64,000 nucleotides of DNA from Candidatus Mcinerneyibacteriota bacterium (lineage in GTDB: Bacteria > Macinerneyibacteriota > Macinerneyibacteria > Macinerneyibacteriales > DSCS01), in NCBI GenBank assembly GCA_016937175.1, contig JAFGWL010000056.1:25685-89684 (forward strand), read 5' to 3'. A program made the translations under genes and the position numbers. Positions within the stretch are counted from its first letter, which is position 1. Each line of letters starts with the position of its first letter. Under the pieces are notes generated by a model. That model saw only the letters and a list, made by a program, of their open reading frames with translations, was not told the DNA's origin and did not search any database. Below, in pieces: positions 3,903 through 52,628 of this stretch.

Positions 3903-3980
3903 CCTATTCCCCCTTTACAACTCACTGGGAGCATTGTAGGGGAGATCCCGAAGGGTCTCAACCGATTTCTTCTTTTTTTT

Positions 3981-4178
3981 TCAGACAGTATCAGTTTTTC
4001 TCTGAAGATGATCTCCTGAAGCAGTATTCTGCCTCATATCCGGCCCCGCAAGAATCAGAAGCCATCCGAAAGGGCCCAGAAGAAAAGAAAAAAAAGCTCC
4101 TGCCCCGGCACGCCCTTTTCTATCACCTATGAGGGCCCCGATCAGGATAGTCACAACAGCGATAATATAATACTCCAT
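3981..4178 (-). CDS. Small membrane protein (65 aa, 2 predicted TM helices)
   Basis: GGAGAGGG SD. Two hydrophobic helices. Confidence 0.5.
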   Translation of the reverse strand: MEYYIIAVVTILIGALIGDRKGRAGAGAFFSFLLGPFGWLLILAGPDMRQNTASGDHLQRKTDTV

Positions 4179-4254
4179 TTCCCTCTCCGCTCAACTTTTC
4201 AAACGCTTTCAGATTATTCAAATTCTTTTTTCACCAGGGCAGGGAAGCCGATGG

Positions 4255-12141: not shown

Positions 12142-15100
12142 TCAAGTATCCTCTTCTTTTTGAATGGTATGAAAGGATGCTAAAAAGACCTTTTCACTGA
12201 TAATATTCCCCAGCATCGTAAAAAAACGTTCATCCTGCTGAAAAGAATAGCGGTCCGATCCCATCTCCAGATAGACCGAAACACTGTAATGTTCATGGAT
12301 GGAATAGGTATTCAGCCTGGCTCCGCCTAACCCCCTGTCAGACTCCATCTCTCTTTTGCCCACCCCCTGGGCAGAGGCTTTTTTTTCGTAATAAATAAAG
12401 TGACTGTTCCCGCCCATGAGAATTCCCAGACGTGTAGCTTGGAAAAGGGCTACGAGGATATCATAAATATCCGAAACGACCTCTTCAACAGGCATAAAGG
12501 GGTCGATCTTCTCTTCAATGCCCAGCAAGGCATCCAGCTTCTCTTTCTCCCGGACAGGGTCATCGATAGCCTTTTTATTGTTTTTCTTTTCTCCCGCTGC
12601 ACTCGCCGGCATGGTCTCATAGGCGATGGTCACATTTCGTCCGCTCGATTTTGCATAATAGAGAGCTTCATCGGCCTGTCCCAGCAGAGAGTCTAAAATC
12701 TCTGCATCCCGGGGATAGAGGGCATACCCTATGCTGACGGTCAGGTTGAACTTTTTGTTCAGGGCCGAACTCTGTACATTCGCCCGGATCCGGTCCGTGA
12801 TACCGGAATAGGAAGCTTTCGGGGGAACCATCATGGCCAGGACGATCTCCTCGCCTCCATAGCGTCCGACGATATCTGAGGCTCTGACTGTCTCTTTGAT
12901 AATAGCACTCACTTCTTTTAAAACAGCATCTCCCCTGGCATGGCCGTATCTGTCGTTAATATTCTTAAAATGGTCGATATCAAGGATGGCTATGATCACC
13001 TGCTGGTCATTGTTCAAAGCATATTCCATGAGTTTTTTGGTCAGATTGATCCAGTGTTCCCTTTTATAAAGGCCCGTAAGCTTGTCCATGAGAGCCGTCT
13101 GTTTCAGGTAATCGTAATAGCCTGCGGCATTGATGTAATCTCTCAGGGGGCCCAGCCCCTCTGTGACCTCCGCGTCAGGCACCAGCAGCATCCTGTCGCT
13201 GTCCAGATAGATACATCCCCTCAAGGCAAAGTAGTGGTAGCTTGACTGGCGCTTATTGTCTCCCCTGTATTTATTGTGTCCCAGTTTTTCTATGTCAAGC
13301 ACCGGGATCACCATGACAGCACTGGCAGAAGAACCTTTTCTGGCCGGTTCACGGCTGAAATAGACATCCCGATGGGATGATTCAAAAAGGACCTCGTTGA
13401 TCGCCTCTTTATAGACAGGAAGAGGTGGATGATATCCGGTCCCCAGGTCCAGAACCACTTTATGCTGCCACCCTTCATACATGTCATACTCATAATAGGC
13501 TGCCCGGGTCATGCCGGTGATCCGGATCAGGTCTTTCAGAATGGACCTGTAGAGATTCTCACCTTCACTCATGGGAGACAACCTGTAGTTTTTCAATGCC
13601 CGTTTTTTCTCTTCCCGGATAAAACGCCGTGCTGTCTGCTCATATTCCTGACGAAATGAGTCCAGATGAAATTTTTCGGACTCATACCCCTGTTCCCGGA
13701 GGAGCTTACTGTGGAAGCGCCATTCAGGATTCTTCTTTTTAAAGGAATCCCTGTATTGATAAGGGATATGCGCCAGCCAGCGGCTCATGATAGAAAGAAG
13801 CTGGGCACAATATTCCAGATGCAGTGCATTCTTCGTCTTCTCTTTTCGGATAAGAGCGTTAAGGACAAACATGGACCTGGAATACCCTGTAAACTCCCCC
13901 ATCCCCTCTTCATCAAACTCCCTCTTCTCTCCGCTGAGAAAGAGGATGACATCCATCATCTTCCTGTCCCCCGGCTCCAGGGTCTCCAGGGAGCCGGAGT
14001 CGATTTTTTTTACATAGTCAGCTGCATCCTGATAGTGGCCTGCACATAGGAGCTGAAGGGCAGCGGTCAGAAGGACGATACTGTAATAGGCCTGGTCTTC
14101 AGCGGAAGAAAAACGTGAAAAGAGGCCTTCGATAAACTCGTCCATGGACTTCTTCCCTTCTGCCTGGAAGAGAAGAGCGATTCTGACGTCGAAATACTCA
14201 TAACTTACTTTTAAAGCGCTCCGTTCTTCATAAAAGGGGGCCGCTTCCTTCAAATGGGCTTTAGCCTGTTGATAATCCCCCAGTTCCATAAGCATATCCG
14301 CATAGAGAAGATGAAGCTTTGAATTTTCCCGGAGTGTAGGAGCTTCAGCCAGGTAAAGCTCTATTTTTTTAAAGGTCGACAGGGCTTGCTCATACTGATG
14401 GAGAAGTTTGTAGACTAAAGATAGGTTGATCGAGTTTGTAACCATTGAAAAATAGATCTTTGCCTGCTCAGCAGCTTTCACTGCGCTTGTCCATGAGGCC
14501 GTACAAGCTTCATAATCTCCTGAATAGTAGTGTATGACACCGATATTAGTTGCCACAATAGCTTCGTAACGATAGTTCTCCAGGATCCGTGCGATCTCAA
14601 GTGCTTTGTTATAGTGGACCAAAGCCTCCGGAAGACGTCCCTGTCTGCGGAGAACGATGGCCAGATTGTTATGGCTGCTGAAGTGGGCATCCAGCCCTGT
14701 TTTCTCTCCTTTTTTTCCAACGATCTCAATCATGGACCGGGCTGTCTCCTGCATCTTTTCAAGATCCATCTTATCCATATAACAGGAAAACATCTCATTC
14801 ATGACCATGACCCGGTTTTCATCGTTCAACGATTCGATGGGCTTTTTATATTTCTCCATGAGCTGTTCCATCTCTTCATAGCGGCCGAGGAATTTCAACT
14901 TCAGCAGGACATGCCGGAGAACGAGGGCCCAGGTATCCTTCTCCTTCCGGTCATAAGCATCCAGAAAAGGGTACATCGCCCTTACATCATCCAGAGTCGC
15001 TTTATCATCCAGAGTCAGCTTAAAAGCCTTTGTGACCTGCTTCTCTCGTTCCGTCCGCCCCTCTTTCTCCAATTTTTCCAACAGGAGGGAATTGTCATAG

Positions 15101-16881
15101 ACATGATTGTGATCCAGCTTCAATAAGTTCAGATAGAGGTCAAAGGAGTTTCCCCCTTTCATCTCCCCGATATTTTTTTCAAAGGCCCGGAAGAGGCGAA
15201 AAAAGAGGACACGGTTCAGAGAACGCTCCCTTTCGCTCAACCGGTTGTAAAAAGAGAGGATCTTTTCGTAAGCTTCTTCCCCCTGCCCGGTGTTTAGCGA
15301 ATAAAAGACATAGCTTTCAAGATAAGCCTTCTCCTGAAATGCAAGTCTTTCCAGCTCATCATACAAAGGACGTTGATCCGTCGTCGTAAATTTTTGTCGG
15401 ACAAGATCGCCGGGGATCCTGTTCAACCGCAGGATGAAGAAAAGTTTGTCCCGGTAAAAAGCTTTCTCTTCCATGAGGTAGATAAGGGCCTTTTTTTCTT
15501 CAGAAGAGAAGAAATCGAAAAAAGAGGAAGGTATCTTTCCTCCCATGGATCGGGCCAGAACCACCACATCCTCTACGGCTTTTCGCTCAGAGCCGGGAAT
15601 CTCCTTTAAGGAAATGGAAAAATCGAAACTCTCTTTCCCCTTATCCAGCGAGACAGTCCCGTTTTTGAATATAAGAGACTCTCCTGCAGCCATTTGACGG
15701 ATAAGCCTAAGAAGGAGGGATGGCTCTCCTTCCGACTGACGCCACAGGGTCTTCGCGGCCTCTTCATCTTCGTTCAGATAAGGAATATAATACCGGAGGA
15801 CGCGACAGGATTCTTCTTCTGTCAGAAGCGGGCAGGAGAGGTTTTCAAACTCTTCAGCAGGCTCGCGCTGCCAGATGAAAAAAGAGATACGATTGTTTTC
15901 AAAATGGTTCGCAATCTTTCTGAGCAGGCTAAGGTCATCACGGCTCATGGATTCTGCCGCTCCCAGCCCAATGGCCACAGGCCCATACCCGGCTGCATCT
16001 TCAAGAAAGCTCAGGAGCCCCTCTTCTCCGTCTGCGCCATTGACTGCCGCTGTAAGCCTCTGAGAAAGGGGTTCCGGGCCTTCTGCCCTGTAAAGCTCGA
16101 TCCCCTCAGCCTGGATAAGAGACAAGACCGCCTCATACCAGATACGGGCATTATCAGCACCACGATAATCATAGATCACCGTCACCGGCTGTATAAAAGT
16201 GAGCCCGTCCGGGGTTCTTGACTGTATAAGTCGTTCAGCTGGGAAGGGAGTGGCCCTGATATGCTCCAGTGCCACAGCTTTAACGTAATCATCCGAGATA
16301 AGAGAACGGAAACCGGGCAGCGAGAAGAGCTCCGTTGCATCCTCTTCCCTGAAGGGAAACCCGAGAGACCTCAGTAACTCAGCAACGGCTTTCATATCAT
16401 TTTTCTGTCCCAGGGCATTATTCACATAGAGAGGGCTCATATCAAAAAAAAGAGGAAGCCCCTGGCCGTCAGCCAGGATATTGCTTTCCCTGAGATCTCC
16501 GTGATAAGCTTCATTTCTGTGTAGAAACCCTAAAAAGACATAAAGGGCACTGATTAGGGTTCCGGCCTTCTGCTTGTCGGCCTGGAAAAGCGAGGGATAT
16601 TTGTCGGCTATATAAAAGCAACGGGTTGTATCAGTGAATCGACCGTCGATGGTCCGCAAAGGGTGAAAGGAATCCAGGGGCCGAAGCAGCGGATGTCGGT
16701 TCAACAGGCCGGCAAGATATTCCTTTCTCAGAAGATCAGTCTGAAAACGTTCTTCCGAAGCCGTGACCTTCAATATCTTCTCTTCGCCCGGAAAGAGGCG
16801 GTCGACCGCTTCATAGACGATGAAATTGCTGTTCTCATTCAAAAGGGTTTTGATTTCAAAGCGGCCGTTGAATAGTTTCAT
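12142..16881 (-). CDS. Giant multidomain signalling protein, paralog of 5468..10243 (1579 aa): kinase-like N-terminus, TPR/STAND-like core, GAF-like region, GGDEF domain with variant motif GGEEI
   Basis: N-terminus MKLFNGRFEIKTLLNENSNFIVYEA is near-identical to its paralog. HGDLRESNIL and FFDMSP motifs. RYGGEEIVLAMM in the GGDEF domain. Confidence 0.9.
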   Translation of the reverse strand: MKLFNGRFEIKTLLNENSNFIVYEAVDRLFPGEEKILKVTASEERFQTDLLRKEYLAGLLNRHPLLRPLDSFHPLRTIDGRFTDTTRCFYIADKYPSLFQADKQKAGTLISALYVFLGFLHRNEAYHGDLRESNILADGQGLPLFFDMSPLYVNNALGQKNDMKAVAELLRSLGFPFREEDATELFSLPGFRSLISDDYVKAVALEHIRATPFPAERLIQSRTPDGLTFIQPVTVIYDYRGADNARIWYEAVLSLIQAEGIELYRAEGPEPLSQRLTAAVNGADGEEGLLSFLEDAAGYGPVAIGLGAAESMSRDDLSLLRKIANHFENNRISFFIWQREPAEEFENLSCPLLTEEESCRVLRYYIPYLNEDEEAAKTLWRQSEGEPSLLLRLIRQMAAGESLIFKNGTVSLDKGKESFDFSISLKEIPGSERKAVEDVVVLARSMGGKIPSSFFDFFSSEEKKALIYLMEEKAFYRDKLFFILRLNRIPGDLVRQKFTTTDQRPLYDELERLAFQEKAYLESYVFYSLNTGQGEEAYEKILSFYNRLSERERSLNRVLFFRLFRAFEKNIGEMKGGNSFDLYLNLLKLDHNHVYDNSLLLEKLEKEGRTEREKQVTKAFKLTLDDKATLDDVRAMYPFLDAYDRKEKDTWALVLRHVLLKLKFLGRYEEMEQLMEKYKKPIESLNDENRVMVMNEMFSCYMDKMDLEKMQETARSMIEIVGKKGEKTGLDAHFSSHNNLAIVLRRQGRLPEALVHYNKALEIARILENYRYEAIVATNIGVIHYYSGDYEACTASWTSAVKAAEQAKIYFSMVTNSINLSLVYKLLHQYEQALSTFKKIELYLAEAPTLRENSKLHLLYADMLMELGDYQQAKAHLKEAAPFYEERSALKVSYEYFDVRIALLFQAEGKKSMDEFIEGLFSRFSSAEDQAYYSIVLLTAALQLLCAGHYQDAADYVKKIDSGSLETLEPGDRKMMDVILFLSGEKREFDEEGMGEFTGYSRSMFVLNALIRKEKTKNALHLEYCAQLLSIMSRWLAHIPYQYRDSFKKKNPEWRFHSKLLREQGYESEKFHLDSFRQEYEQTARRFIREEKKRALKNYRLSPMSEGENLYRSILKDLIRITGMTRAAYYEYDMYEGWQHKVVLDLGTGYHPPLPVYKEAINEVLFESSHRDVYFSREPARKGSSASAVMVIPVLDIEKLGHNKYRGDNKRQSSYHYFALRGCIYLDSDRMLLVPDAEVTEGLGPLRDYINAAGYYDYLKQTALMDKLTGLYKREHWINLTKKLMEYALNNDQQVIIAILDIDHFKNINDRYGHARGDAVLKEVSAIIKETVRASDIVGRYGGEEIVLAMMVPPKASYSGITDRIRANVQSSALNKKFNLTVSIGYALYPRDAEILDSLLGQADEALYYAKSSGRNVTIAYETMPASAAGEKKNNKKAIDDPVREKEKLDALLGIEEKIDPFMPVEEVVSDIYDILVALFQATRLGILMGGNSHFIYYEKKASAQGVGKREMESDRGLGGARLNTYSIHEHYSVSVYLEMGSDRYSFQQDERFFTMLGNIISEKVFLASFHTIQKEEDT

Positions 16882-17762: not shown

Positions 17763-19247
17763 CTATCTCTGATTATAATATCGGTACAGCTTGATGTCTG
17801 TGATCACCTTGCCCAGGCCCACAAAAATAACAAATATCTCAAGACGTCCCAGGAACATCCCGGCAATCTCAGTCCAAAGAATATAAGGCGGGGCTGTTGC
17901 TGAAGTCACTCCCACAGAAAGACCGACTGTCCCGAGAGAAGAGGCAAACTCAAAAAATGAATCTGTGAATGAGTATCCGGCTGTCATAAGGATAAGAGTT
18001 CCCGCGAAAAGAATCAGAAGATAGGTAAAGACAAAGGCAAAGATCTTGTGCACCATCTCTGTTGTGATCCATTGCATACCGCCGCCGTAATAGACTCCTT
18101 TACTTTGGATGGTATTCTTCGGTAAAAGCTGGCGTCTGATATGAAACCATAGTTCCTTAAGGATGACGATGACACGGATCTGCTTGACCCCCCCTGATGT
18201 CGAATAGGCTCCTCCTCCTGTGATCATTAAAATGGAGATAACTACAAGGGCGATCTCGCTGAATTTGGAATAGGGATGGATATTGAATCCGGTCGTTGTC
18301 AATCCCGATATAGACTCAAAAACAGCTGCTTTTATGCGATAAGCTAGCGGAGCTGCTTCACCTGAAGAAACAGAAAAAAAAAGGAACAGTGAACTTGCCA
18401 GGGCCATGACAGCGAAAAGCCTGACTTCAGTGTTCTTAAAAAGTTTTTTAATATTTCCGTGGAAGACCTCATAGGCTGTAATAAAATTCAGATTCCCCAC
18501 AAACATAAGAATGAGAATGATAAAATAAACAGGCCATGAACTCCAATAACCGATACTTTGAGGGTGCGTTGCAAAACCTCCGGTCGAGATCGCTGCAAAT
18601 GTATGATTGACAGCATCAAAAAAAGACATTCCGGCCCACTTTAAAAGAAGAACCCCCGTAATCGCATAAGCACCATAGATGCGCATGACGACTTTTGCCG
18701 AGCTGACCACGTTGGGGATCATTTTATCAGAGCGTCCCTCTGCTTCCATGATGGAACTACCGAAGCCGGCCTGTATTCCGAACACAGAAAGCATGATGAT
18801 GGCCAGCCCTGCTCCTCCGGCGAATTGCATAATACTTCTCCATAACAGAAAGGGAGATGTAATGGAGGTCACATCAAGCACAGAAAGGCCCGTCGTCGTC
18901 CATCCGCTCATGGATTCGAAAAAAGCAAGATGAAAGGGGATGTTCAGCCCGATCCAGAAAGGAAACGATGAGACTACAATGATCCAGAGCCAACCGAAAA
19001 CAGTCAGGACAGCACCGTAATAGAGATTCATCTCTTCATTTTTATAACGAATAAAGAGAATTCGTAGAACAAGCCCGGTGGCAAGGAGAACGAGAGAGGG
19101 AAACCAAAAAGAAAAGATCTCCCTGTTTCCTCCCCCCGAAGTCAAAAGAGCCATAAGGAGAGACGGAAGAAAGAGAAAACTTCCGATAATAGACATATAG
19201 CCTGTATAGTAGAGGATTCCAGCATATTTTCTCATTATCTCATTCAT
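17763..19247 (-). CDS. trkH: Trk/Ktr-type potassium uptake membrane subunit (TrkH/KtrB family)
   Basis: MSGWTTTGLSVLD and SGLTTTGFNI pore-loop motifs. Start MNEIM lies 4 nt after the upstream stop. Confidence 0.85.
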   Translation of the reverse strand: MNEIMRKYAGILYYTGYMSIIGSFLFLPSLLMALLTSGGGNREIFSFWFPSLVLLATGLVLRILFIRYKNEEMNLYYGAVLTVFGWLWIIVVSSFPFWIGLNIPFHLAFFESMSGWTTTGLSVLDVTSITSPFLLWRSIMQFAGGAGLAIIMLSVFGIQAGFGSSIMEAEGRSDKMIPNVVSSAKVVMRIYGAYAITGVLLLKWAGMSFFDAVNHTFAAISTGGFATHPQSIGYWSSWPVYFIILILMFVGNLNFITAYEVFHGNIKKLFKNTEVRLFAVMALASSLFLFFSVSSGEAAPLAYRIKAAVFESISGLTTTGFNIHPYSKFSEIALVVISILMITGGGAYSTSGGVKQIRVIVILKELWFHIRRQLLPKNTIQSKGVYYGGGMQWITTEMVHKIFAFVFTYLLILFAGTLILMTAGYSFTDSFFEFASSLGTVGLSVGVTSATAPPYILWTEIAGMFLGRLEIFVIFVGLGKVITDIKLYRYYNQR

Positions 19248-19251
19248 GTTG

Positions 19252-19908
19252 TCAGTCCCCTTCGATGATTTTTGCAATTTTTCCGATATTTTCAGGGTCA
19301 GAGATGACAAGGATCTTCTGCCCCGACCTCAGGGGAGTCTCTCCCCCGGGAATAGTGATCCCGTTCTCATCAAAGATGACACTGACCAGGGACATTTTGG
19401 GGAAATGGGCATCTTTGATAGCGACCCCGTTGACGGGCGAATCCTCGCTGATCTCGTATTGTGTCATAACTACTTTTCCTTCTGCGAAACTCATGAGATA
19501 AGAAAACCCTTCAAAGATGGTATTCTGACTGATCAGGTCGGCGATCATCTTTGTATTGGACAATCCTTTGATCCCGAAATCCCTAAAGACCTCTTCAAGC
19601 TCAAAATTGTTCACAAGAGCCAGGACATGAGGGACTTTGAAGATGGTCCTGGCTACTTGTCCAATAATGAAATTATCCTGATCCTTTTCCCGTAAAGTAA
19701 TCAGAACATCACAAAAATCAGTTTCCGCTTCTTTCAGGCTTTTCAGGCCCGTTCCGCTTCCCAGGATAACCCTGGCTTTTAATTCCTTCGACAAAAATTC
19801 GCATTCGCTTGGTTCACTGTTCAGAATTGTCAACTGATGCCCTTTTGAAAGTAGCATCTTACCTAGAAAAAATATAATACGTCCTGTGCCGATGATGGTT
19901 ATTTTCAC
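19252..19908 (-). CDS. trkA: TrkA/KtrA-like RCK protein (TrkA-N Rossmann plus TrkA-C)
   Basis: GTG start with GGGAGGA SD. VKITIIGTGRIIFFLG is Rossmann-type. The GTG overlaps the upstream TGA (GTGA). Confidence 0.75.
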   Translation of the reverse strand: MKITIIGTGRIIFFLGKMLLSKGHQLTILNSEPSECEFLSKELKARVILGSGTGLKSLKEAETDFCDVLITLREKDQDNFIIGQVARTIFKVPHVLALVNNFELEEVFRDFGIKGLSNTKMIADLISQNTIFEGFSYLMSFAEGKVVMTQYEISEDSPVNGVAIKDAHFPKMSLVSVIFDENGITIPGGETPLRSGQKILVISDPENIGKIAKIIEGD

Positions 19909-20330
19909 ATATCCTCCCTGAACATCCCCGTGATAAAGAGGTCTGACACCGTGGACACTGTGCTGAGGACTTCTATCCCAAAGTGATGGTAGAGCTCCTC
20001 CCATTTGGGATCGAAGACATGGGCAATGACCCTGGGGACTTCATAATATTTCCTCGCCATCTGGGCCACCATAAGATTGGCATTGTCATCATCACTCGTA
20101 CAAAGGAGATAATCGGCATCCTTTAATTTGGCTTGCTTCAGGATATTTGGATCAACTCCATCACCCAGGATCGTGAAGCCTCCGAAATTCTCATCCAATC
20201 TGGAGAAGGACTTCTTGTCTGTATCAATGACAGTGACACTGTGTCCGAGTCGGCTCAATTTATTAGCCAGATAGGATCCGATCTTCCCCGAACCTATGAT
20301 GACAATATACTTGATGTTTTTCATTATCAT
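19905..20330 (-). CDS. trkA: TrkA-N domain protein (NAD-binding RCK N-domain only)
   Basis: IVIIGSGKIGSYLANKL Rossmann motif. 141 aa. The ATG overlaps the stop of the response regulator (ATGA). Confidence 0.8.
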   Translation of the reverse strand: MIMKNIKYIVIIGSGKIGSYLANKLSRLGHSVTVIDTDKKSFSRLDENFGGFTILGDGVDPNILKQAKLKDADYLLCTSDDDNANLMVAQMARKYYEVPRVIAHVFDPKWEELYHHFGIEVLSTVSTVSDLFITGMFREDM

Positions 20331-20998
20331 CCACCAAGACTCACGGGTTTATCAGGATGCATACTCGTCGCCCGGTCAATATTCTCGATAGCGGGTTTAA
20401 AGGCCGGGTCTATGGCTGTTGCTGCCCTGTAATACTTCAAAGCGTTATTTCTCTCTCCAGTCTTCTCATAGTAGACCCCCATCAGATTGTAGCCTTCCGG
20501 CTGATTGGGATCAAGGGCTATAGCCCTCTTGATCAGCCCCAAAGCTGTGGATGTCTTCTTCCCTTTGATCAAACCGATGATCTTTTCAATAAGGTCGCCA
20601 TAACTCTCTTTTCCAGGAACACTCTCATCCCTCTCAAACTCGATATTCATTTCGACAATCTGTCGGATCTCTTTAGGAGTAAATGGTTTTTGGATAAAAT
20701 CCATCGCCCCTGCTTTCATAGCTTCCACGGCCGAATCAACTGTTCCGTGAGCTGTAATGATGATGACACAGGGTTTGATTTCAGAATTTTTCATAATTTC
20801 CTTAAGTGTATCGATACCGCTCATCCCCGGCATCTTCAGATCCAGAAGAATGATATCAAACCTGCTGGCTTTGTGCAATCTGACAGCTTCTTCACCGTTG
20901 ACAGCTGTTTCAATGAGACAATCCGGTTTCTCCAGCGCCATTTTTATTGTCGTTCTGATATTTTTTTCATCGTCTACGATAAGTATTTTTTTCATCAA
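20327..20998 (-). CDS. Response regulator: REC receiver domain fused to C-terminal TPR repeats, with no DNA-binding domain
   Basis: ILIVDDEKNIR...LLDLKMPGMSG receiver motifs. C-terminal TPR-like helices (YNLMGVYYEKTGERNNALKYYRAATAIDP). Confidence 0.85.
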   Translation of the reverse strand: MMKKILIVDDEKNIRTTIKMALEKPDCLIETAVNGEEAVRLHKASRFDIILLDLKMPGMSGIDTLKEIMKNSEIKPCVIIITAHGTVDSAVEAMKAGAMDFIQKPFTPKEIRQIVEMNIEFERDESVPGKESYGDLIEKIIGLIKGKKTSTALGLIKRAIALDPNQPEGYNLMGVYYEKTGERNNALKYYRAATAIDPAFKPAIENIDRATSMHPDKPVSLGG

Positions 20999-22854
20999 CC
21001 CTCCTCTTCTATCGTTCTCATAGGTAATGTGAAAGTAAAAGCCGCTCCATTGCCCTTCTCTGATTCGACCCAGATGGTTCCCTTATGAGCATGGATGATC
21101 TCCCTTGATATCGAAAGTCCCAATCCCGATGCCCCCTGCTTCTCCTTATCACCCGTTTGGAAAAAGCGGTCGAAGACACGGGAAAGATCCTCCGGGGAGA
21201 TTCCAGGACCGAAATCACGGACAGTGACATAGAGATTGTCCCGGATTATCCGGGTTTTAACTGCGACCTCTCCTTTTTCTTCGGTATACCGTAGGGCATT
21301 TCCTATAAGATTGACTAAGACCCAGACGATTTTTTCAGTATCATGGTAAAAAGGCGGACTCTCTTTACTGTCCACTTCTACTTTGATCCCCTTCTCTCTG
21401 ACCTGGTTTTCCAGGACACTTAATGCTTTATCGAGCGTCTCTGAAAAAGGACAAAGCTCAAAATTCAATGGAAGCTGGCCTGATTCCATTTTCGAAAGGT
21501 TCAAAAGATCACTGACCAGGTTGCTTAACCGGCTGATCTCTTCACCGATCATATCCACAAGTTCCGTCACCTCTTTGCCCTTAATTTTTTCTTTCAGCAG
21601 ATCGACACTCATCTGCATACCGGTCAATGGAGTCTTCAATTCATGGGATGCAGCCATAACAAAATCGCTTTTCATCTTATCCAGAATCCTAAACTTTGTG
21701 ATATCTGTAATCAGAACGACAGCCCCGAAGACCGATTCTTTTTTCATAAAGAGGGGGGTGATTGTATATTGATAATACTTTATACCTTTTTCTCCCTGGA
21801 TCTCGATCAGGTTTTCCCCTTCTTTTTTTTCAAGCCGGCCTGTTCCCATGATGCTTTTGATATTTTTAAACAGAGTCTCCTCTTTTATGACTTCAAGAAA
21901 ATGGCGGTCCAGAGATTCAGACTGGCTCATATGAAAGATATCGGCGGCTTTTGTGTTGATGTTGGTTATCTTCATTTCTTCATTGACGACAATGACGCCG
22001 TCATCGATCTTATTGATGATAGCTTCATTTTTCTTGGTCTCCGTAAGGATCTGCTTGATATTGAGATTCTGATAAAACTGAAGCTTCTGGCTCATCCTGT
22101 TGAATTCCGCAGCCAATTGCCCGAATTCGTCTTTTGATTTTGTTCCAAGTTTGATATTATAATTTCCCCGGCTGATTTCATCAATGGCTGGAAGAATCTC
22201 TTGCATCGGACGCGTGAGGAGGTGAGAAAAGAGAAGGCTCAGAAGAAAACCGGCCAAAAGAGTTCCGCTGCCGACAATAATCAAGGAGAGACGGCTTTTT
22301 GCTGCGATCTCTCTTGTCCGTTCACTGGTTAAAAACATGGTATGCTGGTTCAGGTTTCTTAAAGCGATACAGGCCTTCCTGACCTGATGAAATTTTACCA
22401 TCAGGTCGTTCAGGTAAAACTTTCTTCTTCCTTCATTCCCAGTACGCTGGTATTCCTTGACCATGAACTGATAGAACGAATTAAGGTAAGAATTGTAATG
22501 TTTTTCCAAATCCTCAATCAAAGCCCCCTCTCCCTGGATGGTCTCGTTCTCGGCAGCAGCCTTTAGCCATGAAAGAAAATCCTGCTCGTTCTTTTTAAAA
22601 TCTTCCAGAAGAGATGCACTGTAGTCTGAGAAGAGGATCAGCGTTATGCTGTCTTGCCGTTCAATCGAATCCACCATATTTTCAGCAGCGATAATACTGT
22701 TATAATTCTCCTTGAGGATCTCCTGACTTGCATCTCCCAGCTCGCTGAGTTTTGAGAGCGCCCATAGAAAGATCACTGCAATCAATACAAGAAAGACAGC
22801 ATAAGCGATGAGGATTCGCCACTTTAAAACCGGCTGATACTTTTTGTTATCCAT
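20995..22854 (-). CDS. Sensor histidine kinase (2 TM, HAMP, PAS, HisKA, HATPase)
   Basis: H-box HELKTPLTGM and G-box GLGLSISREI. 4-nt overlap with the downstream response regulator. Confidence 0.9.
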   Translation of the reverse strand: MDNKKYQPVLKWRILIAYAVFLVLIAVIFLWALSKLSELGDASQEILKENYNSIIAAENMVDSIERQDSITLILFSDYSASLLEDFKKNEQDFLSWLKAAAENETIQGEGALIEDLEKHYNSYLNSFYQFMVKEYQRTGNEGRRKFYLNDLMVKFHQVRKACIALRNLNQHTMFLTSERTREIAAKSRLSLIIVGSGTLLAGFLLSLLFSHLLTRPMQEILPAIDEISRGNYNIKLGTKSKDEFGQLAAEFNRMSQKLQFYQNLNIKQILTETKKNEAIINKIDDGVIVVNEEMKITNINTKAADIFHMSQSESLDRHFLEVIKEETLFKNIKSIMGTGRLEKKEGENLIEIQGEKGIKYYQYTITPLFMKKESVFGAVVLITDITKFRILDKMKSDFVMAASHELKTPLTGMQMSVDLLKEKIKGKEVTELVDMIGEEISRLSNLVSDLLNLSKMESGQLPLNFELCPFSETLDKALSVLENQVREKGIKVEVDSKESPPFYHDTEKIVWVLVNLIGNALRYTEEKGEVAVKTRIIRDNLYVTVRDFGPGISPEDLSRVFDRFFQTGDKEKQGASGLGLSISREIIHAHKGTIWVESEKGNGAAFTFTLPMRTIEEEG

Positions 22855-22898
22855 ATTGGGCTATTTTAGTCTGCCGGAGGTGTCTTGTCAATTTTCTT

Positions 22899-25379
22899 TT
22901 AACCCAACCGTTGCAACACCCTGGACAGTTCGGCAATAGAAAACGGCTTCTGTAAAAAGCCCACGGCTCCTTCCCTGGTCATAGCCCGGATCCTCTTGTC
23001 GCCAGTAAAACCGGAAATCAGGATAACGGAGACCCTGCTGTCTATTTTTTTCAGCTCCCGGAAGGTCTCGTACCCGTCCATCCCCGGCATGGAGAGGTCC
23101 AGCAGGACTCCTTTGAATTCACGGCCCTGTTCCCGATACAGAGCGATTCCCTCGGGCCCGCCGGAAACACAGATAGCTTCATATCCGCAAAGCTGAAGCA
23201 TCTCACTGGTAAAATCTCTGACCAGGCTTTCATCATCGATGATAAGGACCCTCCCTTCTCCCCTGATGATCTCATCCGTCACGGCCGGACATTGCGGAGC
23301 AGCTTTTTCCCCCTGGTAAGCGGGAAGAGTAATGGTAAAGAGAGTCCCTTTTCCCTCTGAGGAATCAACGGTGACTGTTCCCCCGTGCCTGTTCACGGCA
23401 TTGGAGACCATGATGAGTCCGAGTCCACTTCCGGCAGCTTTCTCTTTTGTGGTGAAAAAGGGGTCGAAGATCTGCCTGCGCACCCGTTCACTCATCCCCA
23501 CTCCTGTATCCCGGACAGTGATCACCCATGAAGCCCCCCCCTCTGCGGAGGGATGGAGAGCGACTGTCAGGGTCCCCCCCTTTTTCTCTTTTTCCGGGCG
23601 CATGATGGTCATGGCATGTTCGGCATTGACACAGAGGTTCAGGAGCATATGTTCGATCTGATAATAATCTCCGCTGATCAGGGCTTTTTGATCAAAAAAG
23701 TGAAAATCGAGGACCACCGATTTGTCCAGAGTATTCTTACAGATCTCAAAGATCTCTTCGAGGGCATCATTCAAGTCAAAGAGGGTCTCCTCCCCGCTGT
23801 TCATTTTGGATAAGCTGAGGAGCCTGTCGATCACCGATGAAGCTCGGCGTGAAGCTTTAGACAAGTTAGAAAGATAACCCAGGAGTTTCTCTTTATCGAG
23901 TTGTCCGCTCCTGTTGATATAGTATTCAGCCAGAGAGACCGTCCCTTCTATTCCCCCGAGGACATTGTTGAAATCGTGAGCCAGCCCTCCTGCCAGTGTT
24001 CCCACGACTTCCATCTTCTGAGCTTGAAGAAGCTGTCGGTTCATGAGATGGGATTCTGTCACGTCATCCACCCGGACTACCCCTTCCCTGCTGTTTTCTG
24101 TAAAGGGGAAAAAGGTGACATTTAGATAATATTCGGATTCTCCCGATTCATAGGGAAGCCCGAGGATGGTTTTTTCCCTGCCTTTTTTTGCAGCTTCCCG
24201 GATCTCAGACTCCACCGAGGCGAAGAAGGGGGAGACTTGCCCCAGTGAGAAATAACGTCCTTTCAGATGCTGAATGCCAAAGACACGCTCAGCAGCTTTG
24301 TTCCAGCCGGTCACGGTAAGGCCCCTGTCAATGGTGATCAGGACTGAAGGGGAAGAATCGATGATTCCCTGAAAATAGTTCTTGGACTCGGTGAGAGCCT
24401 TTTCCATCCGCCGGATCTCTTCCATCTCCTTTTTTGCCCGGGTGTTTTTCAGGCTCAGATAGATAAAGCCGGCGACCAGAGCCATAAGGACGAAAATGGT
24501 GAGAAAAAGACGCCACCGGTAACCCAGCAAAACCTCGACCTCACTGCTGTGAGGAGTCGAGACAGCGACTGACCAGAAGGTATCCCCCATCCTGATAGGA
24601 TAGAAGGAGGCGTATATGGTGATATTTTTCTCAGAATCCTCCGGTTTAAGGAAATAGGTGCCTTTTCCCTTCAATCCCTTGAGCATGTTGGTGATGATAC
24701 TCTCGAACCCGGGAGCTTCCTGGTGAAGGGCTCTTATCTTTTGTCCGATAAGCTCTTTAACAGGGTGGTAGATGATATACCCACCCTCTGAGATGACCCA
24801 GGGATACCCTTCCCCTGAGGTCCCGACGGGTTCGAAAAAACGACGGGCGATGGAATCAAAGGGGATCAGAACGGTAATACACCCTTTGAACGCTTCTCCT
24901 GCGAAAACGGGATAGGCATAGGCTACAGCCTGATATCCCTGAACAGTTTCAAAGACATCGCTGACCACAGGCTTGTGATCCTTTAAGATGCGTTCATTAT
25001 GTGGTTGCGAACTAACATCCATCCCGAGGACATCTTCCCGGACAGGATAGGTCCCTCTGATCCGTCCCGATTCATCGATCCGGGTCACAGCGATGATGCT
25101 CCCTTCATTGGCACGATAATAACGCTCCAGGAGCATCCCCATATCAAAGGTGTTGTAGATCACCCGGTTATGGGCCGACAGAAAATTCAGGTCTTTCTCG
25201 TAATGGCTGAAATATTCCCTGAGGGCTACCGAAGTCTGTTCGACGATGAGTTCGCGCTGCCGTTCGTGATGCCGGATGATCTCCTGAGAGATCTTATTAT
25301 AATTGACCAGGAGAAACAGCAGCCCTACACAGGTGAGACACCCTCCGATAAGAATCGATTTTGTAATTTTACCGTCCAT
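22899..25379 (-). CDS. Hybrid sensor histidine kinase (periplasmic Cache-like domain, PAS, HisKA, HATPase, C-terminal REC)
   Basis: H-box LAHDFNNVLGGI; GSGLGLIMV; C-terminal receiver VLIIDDESLV...LLDLSMPGMDG. Confidence 0.9.
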   Translation of the reverse strand: MDGKITKSILIGGCLTCVGLLFLLVNYNKISQEIIRHHERQRELIVEQTSVALREYFSHYEKDLNFLSAHNRVIYNTFDMGMLLERYYRANEGSIIAVTRIDESGRIRGTYPVREDVLGMDVSSQPHNERILKDHKPVVSDVFETVQGYQAVAYAYPVFAGEAFKGCITVLIPFDSIARRFFEPVGTSGEGYPWVISEGGYIIYHPVKELIGQKIRALHQEAPGFESIITNMLKGLKGKGTYFLKPEDSEKNITIYASFYPIRMGDTFWSVAVSTPHSSEVEVLLGYRWRLFLTIFVLMALVAGFIYLSLKNTRAKKEMEEIRRMEKALTESKNYFQGIIDSSPSVLITIDRGLTVTGWNKAAERVFGIQHLKGRYFSLGQVSPFFASVESEIREAAKKGREKTILGLPYESGESEYYLNVTFFPFTENSREGVVRVDDVTESHLMNRQLLQAQKMEVVGTLAGGLAHDFNNVLGGIEGTVSLAEYYINRSGQLDKEKLLGYLSNLSKASRRASSVIDRLLSLSKMNSGEETLFDLNDALEEIFEICKNTLDKSVVLDFHFFDQKALISGDYYQIEHMLLNLCVNAEHAMTIMRPEKEKKGGTLTVALHPSAEGGASWVITVRDTGVGMSERVRRQIFDPFFTTKEKAAGSGLGLIMVSNAVNRHGGTVTVDSSEGKGTLFTITLPAYQGEKAAPQCPAVTDEIIRGEGRVLIIDDESLVRDFTSEMLQLCGYEAICVSGGPEGIALYREQGREFKGVLLDLSMPGMDGYETFRELKKIDSRVSVILISGFTGDKRIRAMTREGAVGFLQKPFSIAELSRVLQRLG

Positions 25380-25555
25380 TTACATATCCTACCGTTGAGT
25401 ATGACCTGAAGAAGGCTTCCTGTCAATAACTGTCATGTTTTTGCTTCGTTTCTCTCCAGGCTAAGACTTCAGGCCCCGGCCCGGAGCCGCCTCCAGGGCC
25501 TGCAGGATTTAGAGGATTCGGTGGAAAGGAACGAAGGAAAGGCGGCTCCGATATC

Positions 25556-26056
25556 TCAAGCTGAAAGTGAAAAGGCCTTCTTGTCCCTTTGAGGGGAGAA
25601 GGGGCTTCTCTCTTTCAAGTGGACAGCCAGTGACGGGGTCTCCAAAAGAAGCTTGGCAAAGGAGATATTGAAAGACTCTTCACGGCTTGTCAGAAAGACT
25701 TCACGGAGACCGGCCACAGTTTCTGCAAATAAAAAGATATTGTCAAGCCTGAACGTCCGTCCGATAAGACGCAGATCAGCATAATCACTCTTTAACCGGG
25801 GCAAAAAACGCCTGGCATAATCTGTCACCCGGGGATTCTTTTCAAGATGAAGGAGGATCATTAAATAGGCCTCCCTCCCCGGTTCTTCCCCGGCTGATAT
25901 CCACTTCCATGTCCTCTCAGAATCCCGGTAAAACCACATGGGACAGGGATCTTCCTTAAAAAAGAGAGAAGCGCCCCCCCACTCGCCGGTAAGGGCAAAA
26001 TCCCAAAGAGCGGTCCTGCTGATATCTCCTCTTGTATCAAGAAGCGCTTCTTTCAT
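25556..26056 (-). CDS. Hypothetical protein (166 aa)
   Basis: Start MKEALLDT preceded by AAAGGAG. The track N-extension (start 26227) is in a different frame from the small upstream ORF and lacks an SD. Confidence 0.5.
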   Translation of the reverse strand: MKEALLDTRGDISRTALWDFALTGEWGGASLFFKEDPCPMWFYRDSERTWKWISAGEEPGREAYLMILLHLEKNPRVTDYARRFLPRLKSDYADLRLIGRTFRLDNIFLFAETVAGLREVFLTSREESFNISFAKLLLETPSLAVHLKERSPFSPQRDKKAFSLSA

Positions 26057-26193
26057 ATTGCGCTCCTTTTCCCTCTGGAAAAGGATTGCCTCTGCCCGCT
26101 GCTCCGGCGGATCATATAAACGACCTCCCTTGTGATCAACCCCCAGAGAAGAGCGGCTGTCCCCAATAAAATAAAAGCTAAAAGCATCATCAT
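26053..26193 (-). CDS. Small membrane peptide (46 aa) MMMLLAFILLGTAALLWGLITREVVYMIRRSSGQRQSFSRGKRSAI, translationally coupled to the downstream gene
   Basis: AAAGGAG SD. TM helix plus basic tail. Its stop TGA overlaps the ATG of 25556..26056 (ATGA). Confidence 0.4.
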   Translation of the reverse strand: MMMLLAFILLGTAALLWGLITREVVYMIRRSSGQRQSFSRGKRSAI

Positions 26194-26352
26194 TTCTCCT
26201 TTCTGTATTAATCATAAGGCCGCTCATTGATTCTTTGAAGATAGCAGTTTATTTATTTTAGAGTTCCCCTATTCTATTATATATTATTGTTATTCTAATA
26301 GTTACTTACTTTTATATTGTATTTAGGTTGCCATTTGCTGAACTTCTGAAAC

Positions 26353-26375
26353 GGGCGGAGAAGAAGCCTCCGCCC
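26353..26375 (-). terminator. GC-rich hairpin downstream of the pmbA-like gene
   Basis: Perfect 8-bp stem gggcggag/ctccgccc with a 7-nt loop; weak U-tract (GUUUCAG) on the minus strand. Confidence 0.4.
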
Positions 26376-26388
26376 GCAGGGAAAGTGT

Positions 26389-27693
26389 CTACTTCCCCGA
26401 GATAGTGATCTGGTCTGTCAGGGCCCAGGGAAGGCGGCTATGGCCTGAATCGCTGACTTCTGCAGAAACAGCTTTGATATTTCGGAAAAGCTCTTTGACA
26501 TTCCCGCTTATCATGGTTTCACTGAGTCCGTTTTTGATCTCTCCGTTTTCAATGAGGAAACTGTTTTTGGCCACTCCCGAGAAGTCACCGTTTTCCCCGG
26601 GATTCCCTCCGGAAAAGCGGGTGAGAAGGAGCCCCTTTTTAACACTTCTGATCATGGACTCAAGGGAATCCCGCCCAGGTTCAAGGAGATAGAAACGGCC
26701 ATTGTTGGCAGCCCGTTCCCGTTTGCATTTGGCTGCTCCATATTGGCTTAAAAGATAACTTTTCAGGACACCCTTTTCGATGAGTGTGAGGTTTTCTGCC
26801 GGGAATCCGTCCTGAGTTATCGCATACCCGCCCGCCATTGAGGGGTCCAGAGGAAGAGACTTCAAAGTGACCAGCGGAGAAGCCACCTCTTCGCCCAAAG
26901 CATCTTTCAGAAAAGAGGTTCCGGTGATCATGGCCCTGTCACTCAGATGAGAAGAAAGAAACATGATAAAATCCAGAAGACATTCGGGGGTCATAACGAT
27001 CTCCCCGATGCATTTACCGGGGAAAGGCCTTGTGTCAATGAGGCGCGGAGCTTCTCCTATGAGCCTCTTTACCCCCCCGGCCTCAAGGAGATGATGTGAA
27101 AGGTCATTCATAGTGACATCGGCAAAATTGAAAGAAGAGCTCTTTTCTCCTTTTTTGGCTGAAAACATTACAGTGAATTGGTAGAATCCCCGCTCATGGT
27201 ATAGATCAGCCTCATTACTGTTTTTGTAATGACGGGTAAGGACCTTATAGTCCAAAATGGCCTGTTCCAGGATCACTGAGGGATAAGTCGCCTTGACATC
27301 GGTAACAAATTCTTTCAGACGCTCGTACATCCGGTCAGCGTCGGGCCCGTCTCCTGCCGCTTCTCTTCTCAGGGTATTCTTTTCGGAAATGTCGTATGCA
27401 GGATCCTTTTCCGATGAGAGGGCGATATCGTATGTCTCACGGACCGTCTCGTTGACAGCATCCTCATCGGTCCTGTTCGTGGTCATTGTCCCTTTTTTAG
27501 CATCTTTAATAACTGTGAGAGTAAGTTCCGTATCAAAAATAGTTCTGAGAAGACTGATCTCTCCCCCATCCACATTCAGCTCATGGGTCATGGAATGAGT
27601 AAGGTCACAGGCCGTCTTCTCAGCCCCGGTCGCTTTCAGAGATTCACAGCTTTTGTTAAGGATATCAGTGCTTTTTTCATAGGACATCTTCAT
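26389..27693 (-). CDS. pmbA: PmbA/TldE-family metallopeptidase (peptidase U62)
   Basis: Start MKMSYEK with GGAGGG SD; abuts tldD. The family typically pairs with TldD. Confidence 0.8.
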   Translation of the reverse strand: MKMSYEKSTDILNKSCESLKATGAEKTACDLTHSMTHELNVDGGEISLLRTIFDTELTLTVIKDAKKGTMTTNRTDEDAVNETVRETYDIALSSEKDPAYDISEKNTLRREAAGDGPDADRMYERLKEFVTDVKATYPSVILEQAILDYKVLTRHYKNSNEADLYHERGFYQFTVMFSAKKGEKSSSFNFADVTMNDLSHHLLEAGGVKRLIGEAPRLIDTRPFPGKCIGEIVMTPECLLDFIMFLSSHLSDRAMITGTSFLKDALGEEVASPLVTLKSLPLDPSMAGGYAITQDGFPAENLTLIEKGVLKSYLLSQYGAAKCKRERAANNGRFYLLEPGRDSLESMIRSVKKGLLLTRFSGGNPGENGDFSGVAKNSFLIENGEIKNGLSETMISGNVKELFRNIKAVSAEVSDSGHSRLPWALTDQITISGK

Positions 27694-27694
27694 A

Positions 27695-29110
27695 CTACTT
27701 CCCTCCAATATTGATCCGGCATTTGACAGCAGGGCCGCCCATACCCACGGGGATGGCCTGCTTTTTTCCGCACATCCCGGCACAACTCCAGGACATCTCA
27801 TCTGATACCATGGTCACAGTCTTCAGCATATCGAAGGCTATCCCGGAGATTGTTGTGTTCTTTAGAGCTTTCCCCAGCTTTCCATTTTTGATCTCGTACC
27901 CCATGACGACTCCAAACATGAACTCACTGGTGGTATCCGCCTGTCCGTTACTGGCCTTGGCCAGATAATATCCATGATCAATGGAGGCGACCATATCTTC
28001 AAGTCTGTCCTTTCCGGGAAGGATCGCCGTATTTCTCATACGGATCAGTGGTTCGTCGCTGTATTCCGAGGCACGGGCGTTCCCTGTTGGAGCAAATCCA
28101 AAGTGAAGGGCTGTTTCTTTATTGAATAAGTAACTTTTCAGGATACCCTGTTCTATGATAGGGACATCTTTCGCCTCTGTCCCTTCATCATCTACAAAGA
28201 CAGGGACCGGGCACTGTACTCCAAGAGCTGTATGGGCAAAATCGGTGAGGGAGATCAGAGGGCTGGCCACCTCCTTATCCAGGTAATCTCCTGCTACAGA
28301 ACCTCCCAGGACGATGTCGGCTTCTGTAGTATGGCCTATAGCTTCGTGAGCCAGGATCCCTGCCAGATCGGCATCCATAATGACATCATGCTCTCCTGCT
28401 TCAGGATAGATCCCTTCAGCTTTTTCTTTCAGTTTCCCGTATAACCTGTCCAGACGCTCGAAAAAGTCTTCGGGAATTCCGAAATTATCTTCATACTGTC
28501 CGAAGCCGCCGTAGACATCATAGAGGTCCACAGGCCCTTCCCCCTTATCCAGAGTGAGAGAGACGATAAGAAGCGCCCGGGGGATCATGGAATAGGCCCG
28601 TGACCCTTCAGAGTTCAGAAGGGCTTTTTCCATATCCAGGTTTGCCATTGTCACACCGCGGGCACTGACATCGGGATAACTTTTTTTCAAGTAATTGTCG
28701 ATCTCCCTTAAAAACGCGGTCATCTCTTTTGGTGTCGCCCTCTGCTGAATCGTTGAAAAATCGTGATACCCCTGTGCGCTGCCATAGGCCAAAGGCATGG
28801 CATTCCGGTTTTCTCTGCTGTCGAGAAATTGAGCGTTTCTTGTAGCAGCCCGTATCACTGACTTTACATCCGCCTCTGAGGTTTCAGGACTGGCTGAAAA
28901 TCCCCAGACACCTCCGGCGTAGACACGGGCGGAGATACCGCTGCTATGGTTCCTCGTGTTGGCTACGACATCCCCGTTCAAAAGGGTAATCCGCAGATTC
29001 CTGTTTTTTTGGTATCGAAGTTCAGTATATTCACTGAAATCATCACGAAACTTATCAAGATATTCCAGGTTCAAAATGCCCTCCTTTTTTTTCACCCTCA
29101 TTATAATCAC
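27695..29110 (-). CDS. tldD: TldD-family metallopeptidase (peptidase U62)
   Basis: HEAIGH motif (ILAHEAIGHTTEAD). GTG start at 29110 with AGGTGA SD; alternative ATG (MRVKKK) about 9 nt downstream. Confidence 0.8.
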   Translation of the reverse strand: MIIMRVKKKEGILNLEYLDKFRDDFSEYTELRYQKNRNLRITLLNGDVVANTRNHSSGISARVYAGGVWGFSASPETSEADVKSVIRAATRNAQFLDSRENRNAMPLAYGSAQGYHDFSTIQQRATPKEMTAFLREIDNYLKKSYPDVSARGVTMANLDMEKALLNSEGSRAYSMIPRALLIVSLTLDKGEGPVDLYDVYGGFGQYEDNFGIPEDFFERLDRLYGKLKEKAEGIYPEAGEHDVIMDADLAGILAHEAIGHTTEADIVLGGSVAGDYLDKEVASPLISLTDFAHTALGVQCPVPVFVDDEGTEAKDVPIIEQGILKSYLFNKETALHFGFAPTGNARASEYSDEPLIRMRNTAILPGKDRLEDMVASIDHGYYLAKASNGQADTTSEFMFGVVMGYEIKNGKLGKALKNTTISGIAFDMLKTVTMVSDEMSWSCAGMCGKKQAIPVGMGGPAVKCRINIGGK

Positions 29111-52555: not shown

Positions 52556-52628
52556 TGTGCCCGAAAGGAGTCGAACCTTCAGCCTACAGATCCGGAGTCT
52601 GTCGCTCTATCCATTGAGCTACGGGCAC
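52556..52628 (-). tRNA. tRNA-Arg (anticodon CCG)
   Basis: Hand-folded cloverleaf: acceptor GUGCCCG/CGGGCAC, D-stem GCUC/GAGC, anticodon stem ACAGA/UCUGU with loop CUCCGGA, T-stem GAAGG/CCUUU with loop UUCGACU. No encoded CCA. Confidence 0.85.

Follow-up and report, generated by a model that had tools for sequence, protein, structure and literature searches.

A widely conserved gene cassette that joins a histidine kinase and a REC-TPR response regulator to Trk-type potassium uptake genes

Several described systems resemble the gene cluster analysed here. KdpDE is a two-component system dedicated to a K+ importer, KdpFABC, and encoded beside it; KdpD reportedly also has a post-translational effect on the Kdp pump (PMC11018627). 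In Escherichia coli, unphosphorylated PtsN (EIIA-Ntr) binds TrkA directly and modulates K+ uptake (review PMC13104625). The ntrYX/plrSR clusters of proteobacteria encode a HAMP-PAS kinase and a response regulator directly upstream of trkA-trkH, with 4-bp overlaps (PMC13001219). The cluster described here lies on the minus strand of a 64,000-nucleotide stretch of DNA from a Candidatus Mcinerneyibacteriota bacterium (assembly GCA_016937175.1, contig JAFGWL010000056.1, positions 25,685 to 89,684). This whole stretch is called the window, and its own numbering is used for the coordinates in it. Five genes, together about 5.1 kb, encode a sensor histidine kinase (HK2), a response regulator composed of a receiver (REC) and TPR repeats (REC-TPR), an RCK protein with the N lobe only, an RCK protein with N and C lobes (TrkA) and a TrkH-family subunit. 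As judged from sequence comparisons, this unit is a widely conserved, self-contained cassette predicted to serve K+ uptake, uncharacterised but not rare. Two-component control of K+ uptake and phosphorylation-dependent binding to TrkA are known already; the REC-TPR/Trk cassette itself appears to be unstudied. Full-text searches of the literature gave no study of a REC-TPR regulator linked to Trk/Ktr, and no curated family for the cassette was found.

To place the cluster in other genomes, one genome per GTDB species was scanned with an alignment of 30 REC-TPR family members as query. The scan yielded 34 loci with a full-length REC-TPR homologue, a further one came from a look-up, and the neighbouring genes in these 35 loci were identified by tblastn with the window proteins. 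Most of the related loci come from metagenome-assembled genomes; their taxonomic labels are used as deposited and their start codons were assigned by homology. Trk genes were found directly downstream of REC-TPR in 29/35 genome loci. The order HK2, REC-TPR, N-only RCK, N+C RCK and TrkH is kept in 27 loci; of the two variants, one has a permuted order (L006) and the other lies on a contig that ends after TrkA (L021). In contrast, a Trk gene occurs within 10 kb in none of 46 control loci from the same scan that match only the REC part and represent other response regulators (Fisher's exact p = 2e-16). The window matches the consensus order of the cassette, which reads HAMP-PAS kinase, REC-TPR (approximately 210–245 aa), N-only RCK, N+C RCK and TrkH. 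HK2 homologues, 33–44% identical over their full length, are encoded directly upstream of REC-TPR in the genome loci that extend far enough, with the exception of L010, where the two genes are separated.

The reciprocal test gave a concordant result. A word-index search with the 141-aa N-only RCK protein returned three proteins only, and a metagenome scan with an N-only RCK alignment, which gave 80 loci, was used instead. REC-TPR is encoded immediately upstream of the N-only RCK homologue in 44 of the 54 metagenome loci with at least 750 nt of upstream sequence. In 55/55 metagenome loci the next gene after the N-only gene is that for N+C RCK, and TrkH follows in 36/36. Where the two-component system is missing from a metagenome locus, the upstream genes are unrelated; among them are genes for cytochromes and a P-type ATPase. 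The distance matrices of the five cassette proteins correlate with each other (r 0.74–0.92), suggesting that the cassette moves and diverges as a unit. A preliminary description of this DNA, made from the sequence alone, had proposed gene-neighbourhood conservation as a check of the linkage, with its lack in relatives as a refutation. The same five-gene order recurs under at least eleven phylum-level labels, which include Planctomycetota, Desulfobacterota, Chloroflexota, Bacillota, Hydrogenedentota, Riflebacteria, Gemmatimonadota, Cyanobacteria, Actinomycetota, Aminicenantes and Spirochaetes, and the linkage thus withstands this check. The arrangement had also been called unusual. It is indeed uncharacterised, but it is not rare, and phosphorylation-dependent binding to TrkA has a precedent in PtsN of E. 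coli.

Six of the 35 genome loci have no Trk genes beside REC-TPR. In L018 (1264–3309), the gene after HK2 and REC-TPR encodes an APC-family permease that among solved structures matches KimA alone, a K+ transporter (6s3k, E 7e-59), which identifies it as a KimA homologue. In L033 (4074–8122), the genes for Kup and for a weaker KimA-like permease come before those for HK2 and REC-TPR, and in L013 (6242–7360 and 11856–13871) the pair has genes for an MscS channel and for a Na+/H+ exchanger-Usp protein on its two sides. These three of the six exceptions still point to K+ or osmotic homeostasis. Of the remaining loci, L003 and L028 are short contigs on which REC-TPR is followed by hardly any informative sequence or by none, and L034 encodes a distant member (34% identity) beside a peroxiredoxin gene. 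Variation was also seen within loci that do carry Trk genes. L010 (6291–6968) and L116 (5354–5998), the latter from a metagenome, have a coiled-coil-REC regulator in the slot beside the Trk genes; the two proteins are 52% identical to each other, with a coiled-coil-like N-terminus of about 95 aa and a REC domain of the DDEKNIR/DFIQKPF type. L010 contains two Trk sets in tandem behind one HK2. L162 has an otherwise complete cassette in which an inserted alpha-amylase gene (2967–4445; NCBIfam NF006969, 719 bits) separates REC-TPR from N-only RCK.

All six open reading frames (ORFs) of the preliminary description, which comprised the five cassette genes and a hybrid histidine kinase gene upstream of them, were recovered at the same positions on the minus strand, and their Pfam domains agree with it (Table 1). 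None of the six proteins reaches the cut-off of any NCBIfam model (TrkH, for example, scores 267 bits on TIGR00933, cut-off 331), so that a PGAP-type annotation would yield generic names only. The cluster has the classical features of a two-component system, namely HisKA and HATPase_c in the kinase, a D-D-D-T-K set in the receiver and adjacent genes. Likewise, membership in the Trk/Ktr group is indicated by an RCK subunit with TrkA_N and TrkA_C that is encoded beside the membrane subunit, with an additional protein that has TrkA_N only.

Table 1. Features of the Trk cassette and of the gene upstream of it; coordinates refer to the window.
Feature	Coordinates	Strand	Description
P1, predicted sigma70-like promoter of the hybrid histidine kinase gene	25398..25426	minus	TTGACA-17-CATACT; consensus scan
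Hybrid histidine kinase	22899..25379	minus	dCache_1, PAS, HisKA, HATPase_c, REC (Pfam)
P2, predicted sigma70-like promoter of the five-gene operon	22863..22891	minus	TTGACA-17-TAAAAT; 11/12 consensus matches
HK2 sensor histidine kinase	20995..22854	minus	HAMP, PAS, HisKA, HATPase_c (Pfam); two transmembrane segments
REC-TPR response regulator	20327..20995	minus	REC and TPR (Pfam); 222 aa from ATG
RCK N-lobe-only protein	19905..20330	minus	TrkA_N only (Pfam); 141 aa
RCK N+C protein	19252..19908	minus	TrkA_N and TrkA_C (Pfam); 218 aa; GTG start
TrkH-family K+ translocating subunit	17763..19247	minus	TrkH (Pfam, 153 bits); 494 aa

The six genes had been taken for one tight operon. For the five cassette genes this holds. 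At the junction of HK2 and REC-TPR, which reads GGTTGATGAAA (GGTTGATG), the genes overlap by 4 nt if REC-TPR starts at the alternative TTG at 20998 and by 1 nt if it starts at the ATG, which is favoured by the alignment of homologues and by the gene call in L082. REC-TPR and the TrkA_N gene share an ATGA (4-nt overlap), the TrkA_N and TrkA genes share a GTGA (4-nt overlap), with the GTG start backed by an alignment of 29 homologues, and 4 nt separate TrkA from TrkH. GA-rich, Shine-Dalgarno-like stretches are located inside the 3′ end of each preceding gene. The junction between the hybrid kinase gene and HK2 does not fit the earlier picture, as it is neither an overlap nor an abutment but a gap of 44 nt that contains the predicted promoter P2. 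The –10 element of P2 ends 8 nt before the ATG of HK2, and no Shine-Dalgarno sequence is present in between. In L084, whose REC-TPR is 66% identical, TTGACA-17-TAAGAT occurs at 6107–6135 at the same 8-nt distance from the ATG and with an unrelated spacer. Conservation of the hexamers and of the 8-nt distance alongside a diverged spacer has the appearance of a phylogenetic footprint left by a genuine promoter. With so few nucleotides between the –10 element and the ATG, the HK2 mRNA may be leaderless or nearly so.

The hybrid kinase gene is preceded by hexamers of its own (P1), which recur before the orthologous gene in L084 (TTGACA-16-CATACT, 3563–3590) with a diverged spacer, and from which we infer that it has a promoter of its own. 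Both promoter calls are consensus matches, each backed by one cross-species comparison. No terminator-like site was found in the gap between the hybrid kinase gene and HK2 or just past trkH, which for the former leaves room for read-through from the hybrid kinase gene into the cassette. A riboswitch before the operon, such as a c-di-AMP type, was not found; the sole Rfam match in the window is a single tRNA gene (52556–52628, minus strand).

Among the genome loci the hybrid kinase gene occurs upstream of HK2 only in L082–L085, whose REC-TPR proteins are 66–95% identical to that of the window, and it is absent from this position in the others. These close relatives have the flanking PmbA/TldD and TPR-GGDEF genes in common with the window too, and the presence of the hybrid kinase gene in them may reflect simple synteny. 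Its inclusion in the cassette is therefore not upheld: it is a lineage-specific neighbour with its own predicted promoter, which may or may not feed into the cassette. The system had in addition been termed a phosphorelay. Hpt families are missing from the Pfam matches of the six proteins and of five flanking ORFs that were scanned, and the hybrid kinase is missing from the cassette beyond close relatives; a multi-step His-Asp-His-Asp phosphorelay was rejected on these grounds, although an Hpt protein may be encoded elsewhere in the genome. The conserved core is predicted to be a plain pair of histidine kinase and response regulator, with no multi-step phosphorelay within the cluster.

The REC-TPR family is large. 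Members 45–52% identical to the window protein over its full length are found in many phyla and bear generic names only, and censuses list REC-TPR combinations as rare architectures without assigned function (PMC5847659). A profile search gave 9208 matches at E ≤ 1e-30, a number that is inflated by proteins with multiple REC domains or long TPR arrays and was not used as family size. In the alignment of 30 sequences, the acceptor residues D8, D9, D52, T81 and K103 are invariant, as are A158, E167, N170, G173, E177, R190, P197, A202, N205 and R208 in the C-terminal part. A confident AlphaFold2 model (pLDDT 89.4, pTM 0.78) consists of a REC fold, a long helix alpha-5 and another five helices that form two TPR repeats and a capping helix. 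Sequence and fold searches against the PDB matched the REC part to NtrC1, Spo0F, CheY and PorX and the TPR part to consensus TPR proteins and OGT; they gave no solved structure that covers the full-length protein and no match to a DNA-binding domain. The absence of a DNA-binding output, which had been noted before, is thus confirmed by the five helices of the model and by the fact that only REC and TPR families match. Since REC-TPR has no DNA-binding domain, it probably acts on proteins. One family member, P0128, is a HisKA-HATPase-REC-TPR fusion, which supports HK2 as the cognate kinase of REC-TPR. Other forms include P0126, P0127 and P0137, in which a coiled-coil N-terminal extension of about 95 residues precedes REC-TPR, and P0266, a REC-TPR-Usp-Usp fusion.

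In some lineages a separate transcriptional regulator accompanies the cassette. An NtrC-family response regulator with a REC-AAA+-HTH architecture is encoded directly upstream of HK2 in seven genome loci (L002, L004, L005, L010, L011, L015 and L032); in L020 the upstream regulator is of the OmpR type instead, and in the metagenome locus L116 an NtrC-type gene is placed after HK2. Six of the seven gaps between the NtrC-type gene and HK2 contain a sigma54-type –24/–12 element. In four gaps it has the form TGGCAC/T-N5-TTGC, for example TGGCACAACTGTTGCT in L002, and in L011 and L015 a looser GG-N10-GC form was read by eye. Inverted repeats of the TTGCA type, which are typical of enhancer sites, occur in six gaps and are clearest as CCTTGCA-N3-TGCAAGG in L002, L004, L005 and L011. 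The sigma54 elements before HK2 independently mark HK2 as the first gene of the operon. Because REC-TPR is retained although a transcriptional regulator is present, it must do something that a DNA-binding regulator does not. In those lineages, the economical reading is that transcription would be handled by the other regulator, leaving a non-transcriptional role for REC-TPR; the protein-level role assigned to it in the preliminary description is therefore still the economical one.

The two RCK proteins differ in their predicted nucleotide sites. The N-only protein keeps the canonical Rossmann motif (GSGKIG...VTVID in the window, GCGRLG...VVVID in the family). In the N+C protein the motif is degenerate, with GTGRII...ILN in the window and GGGKxxYF...IN as family consensus. 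Among 29 aligned N+C members, the third glycine of GxGxxG is lost in nearly all, with L030 alone keeping it, and the acidic residue of strand 2 is mostly N. This would suggest a heteromer in which one nucleotide site is intact and the other degenerate. In other RCK proteins the C lobe carries regulatory ligand sites, and a protein that acts in trans could plausibly dock on the N-only subunit, which has no C lobe. The actinobacterial locus L030 encodes a longer first RCK protein (202 aa) with a C-terminal extension that resembles a C lobe. TrkH retains the pore-loop glycines (TTTG 118, STGG 221, TTTG 318, GTVG 440) and the STxGGxK loop at 350 in 28/28 sequences. At the sensory end, the transmembrane segments of HK2 (residues 7–40 and 187–212) enclose an extracytoplasmic stretch of about 150 aa. 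Pfam repeatedly gave weak 4HB_MCP_1 and KinB_sensor matches to this region in the HK2 family. 4HB_MCP_1 is at or above its cut-off in L013 (29.0 bits) and L024 (27.0 bits) and also matches the kinase of L162; the window HK2 has a sub-threshold KinB_sensor match only.

Taken together, these observations are consistent with the following model, to which we assign a probability of about one half: HK2 phosphorylates REC-TPR, which serves as a phosphorylation-switched adaptor that most likely acts on the RCK/TrkH complex, and the operon is expressed from its own promoter. Transcription would start directly upstream of HK2, from a sigma70-type promoter here and from a sigma54-type promoter with an NtrC-family activator in several lineages. 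HK2 would sense an extracytoplasmic or membrane signal through a domain resembling a four-helix bundle, and this signal is probably related to K+ or osmolarity. Adjacency of the genes, the conserved acceptor residues and the kinase-regulator fusion suggest that HK2 phosphorylates Asp52 of REC-TPR. The regulator would then bind its target through a TPR module of 2.5 repeats, the most likely target being the cytoplasmic gating assembly of the two RCK proteins on TrkH, and K+ flux could be tuned within seconds, in addition to whatever control exists at the level of transcription. That REC-TPR touches an RCK protein directly is plausible, and indirect evidence for such a partner is that the REC-TPR gene adjoins the N-only RCK gene; the junction measures mostly –17 to +20 nt in the genome loci, often with overlapping codons. 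A more specific form of the model, in which REC-TPR would belong to the Trk gating ring as a phosphorylation-switched subunit and dock on the heteromeric RCK assembly, possibly on its N-only protein, is put forward more tentatively.

Several observations weigh against an action of REC-TPR on the RCK proteins. About 19% of the closest trios of N-only RCK, TrkA and TrkH have no two-component system, which means that the transporter does not need it and that the system is a frequent accessory. The contigs of L018 and L033 contain no RCK gene, and HK2 and REC-TPR are neighbours of a KimA homologue or Kup there; the target thus need not be an RCK protein, or the regulator may work at a different level. 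A scan of eight unusually long proteins from the best 150 family representatives gave no REC/TPR-TrkA_N fusion. Finally, partial mirror-tree correlations, at most suggestive since they were calculated for 20 taxa and not accompanied by a significance test, stand out for the known partner pairs HK2-RR (0.42) and TrkA-TrkH (0.52) and are weak for RR-TrkA (0.26) and RR-TrkA_N (0.18), RR being REC-TPR; for RR-TrkH the value is –0.06.

Among the alternatives, the one that survives best, although we consider it unlikely, is that REC-TPR works within the machinery of signalling or transcription and not on the transporter, so that control of K+ uptake would be transcriptional after all. REC-TPR could then take part in feedback on HK2 or be its phosphate sink; it could assist the NtrC-type activator, or a DNA-binding response regulator with its gene elsewhere, as co-regulator; or it could bind RNA polymerase or a sigma factor. 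Such a role would be in line with several loci that have two or three response regulators per HK2 (NtrC- or OmpR-type, stand-alone REC and REC-TPR), and an effect on general expression levels would more easily account for the pairs beside KimA-like and Kup genes. There is reportedly a precedent in single-domain response regulators that bind sigma54; VemR, for instance, is reported to interact with RpoN2 (title of PMC6637908). On the other hand, most loci lack a second response regulator in their neighbourhood, the window and L081 among them. In the window the promoter is a near-consensus sigma70 promoter and the 44-nt gap leaves no room for an activator site, and a mere phosphate sink would not need the invariant TPR surface.

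REC-TPR might instead be a general adaptor of K+ homeostasis whose partners would be different importers (Trk, KimA and Kup) or a node upstream of them all, for example a second-messenger enzyme, and not the RCK ring in particular. The pair is linked to three unrelated families of K+ importers, as well as to MscS and the Na+/H+ exchanger-Usp gene, and the REC-TPR-Usp-Usp fusion P0266 would fit a broader role. We nevertheless regard this as improbable, since REC-TPR is encoded immediately before the N-only RCK in 29/35 genome and 44/54 metagenome loci, the KimA and Kup cases amount to two loci only, and no second-messenger gene was seen in the neighbourhoods inspected. That the linkage reflects mere co-transcription or hitch-hiking, with unrelated targets for the two-component system, as proposed for ntrYX/plrSR-trkAH, where Bordetella plrR overlaps trkA by 4 bp with no functional link between trkAH and PlrSR in infection and the linkage occurs in just 27% of plrS homologues (PMC13001219), is very improbable for a linkage conserved at about 80% in both directions across many phyla and in none of the controls, in which other K+ importers replace the missing Trk genes in two loci and all five proteins co-diverge.

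The ORF that converges on trkH encodes 267 aa and ends 3 nt from the trkH stop codon. Just beyond it lies a gene (12142–16881, minus strand) whose 1579-aa product combines TPR repeats with a GGDEF domain at its C-terminus; this gene is syntenic in L084 and L085. On the other side, upstream of the hybrid kinase gene, the stretch at 25556–29110 (minus strand) contains a 223-aa ORF without a Pfam match, followed by two genes of the PmbA/TldD metallopeptidase family; the maximal ORFs of these two genes overlap, and the same arrangement is found in L082 and L084.

Fast control of Trk/Ktr is currently ascribed to nucleotides (ATP/ADP, NADH, c-di-AMP) and, in enterobacteria, to PtsN. If the more specific form of the model holds, a two-component system would gate a channel-like K+ importer directly and without transcription, and REC-TPR would be the first response regulator shown to serve as a gating ligand of Trk/Ktr. 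In many phyla without well-studied models, a kinase and adaptor pair dedicated to the transporter and encoded with it would connect external signals directly to K+ flux, and it would give a function to a large family of response regulators now annotated only as 'response regulator'. It would also explain why the RCK pair is split into one protein with an intact and one with a degenerate nucleotide site.

Compared with KdpDE, the cassette shares the dedication of a two-component system to a neighbouring importer and differs in its parts: KdpE is an OmpR-type DNA-binding response regulator and Kdp a P-type ATPase, whereas here a TPR output is combined with TrkH and RCK subunits. Membership in the KdpDE group was rejected. 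The KdpD model matches the kinase core of HK2 only (residues 393–615; 118 bits, cut-off 1123), HK2 has no KdpD-type N-terminal domain, and neither a winged-helix domain nor kdp genes are present in the cluster. In the ntrYX-trkAH clusters the response regulator is NtrX (REC-AAA+-HTH) and the linkage reaches 27%, in contrast to REC-TPR, split RCK genes and a linkage of about 80% across phyla here. An assignment to NtrYX-trkAH was likewise rejected, as the window cluster has no AAA+ response regulator and the NtrC-type regulators of the related loci lie far below the NtrX cut-off (290–325 bits, cut-off 600). The latter score higher on the AtoC and NtrC models and are generic, with AtoC, NtrC and ZraR as best models, all below cut-off. 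With respect to the transporter, the division into N-only and N+C genes sets the cassette apart from KtrA, a single N+C protein, and from the tandem form of proteobacterial TrkA (458 aa).

The presumed mode of action has parallels elsewhere. In the adaptor response regulators CheY, CpdR, RssB, PhyR and PorX, phosphorylation of REC switches the binding of protein partners, and like REC-TPR they have no DNA-binding output; we know of none that has an architecture of REC and 2.5 TPR repeats or is tied to an ion transporter. In functional terms, the proposed mechanism most closely resembles that of PtsN, a small cytoplasmic protein whose phosphorylation state sets its binding to TrkA. PtsN differs in that it belongs to PTS-Ntr, is phosphorylated on His from phosphoenolpyruvate, shares no homology with REC-TPR and is encoded apart from trk; its binding to TrkA is known, whereas an interaction of REC-TPR is predicted here from gene order and domain content. 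A further parallel is c-di-AMP, which in Firmicutes controls KtrA/KtrC, KimA and other, unrelated K+ importers at the protein level. Its ligand is a nucleotide and not a phosphorylated protein, yet the principle of one regulator for several importers recalls the occurrence of HK2 and REC-TPR beside Trk, KimA-like and Kup genes.

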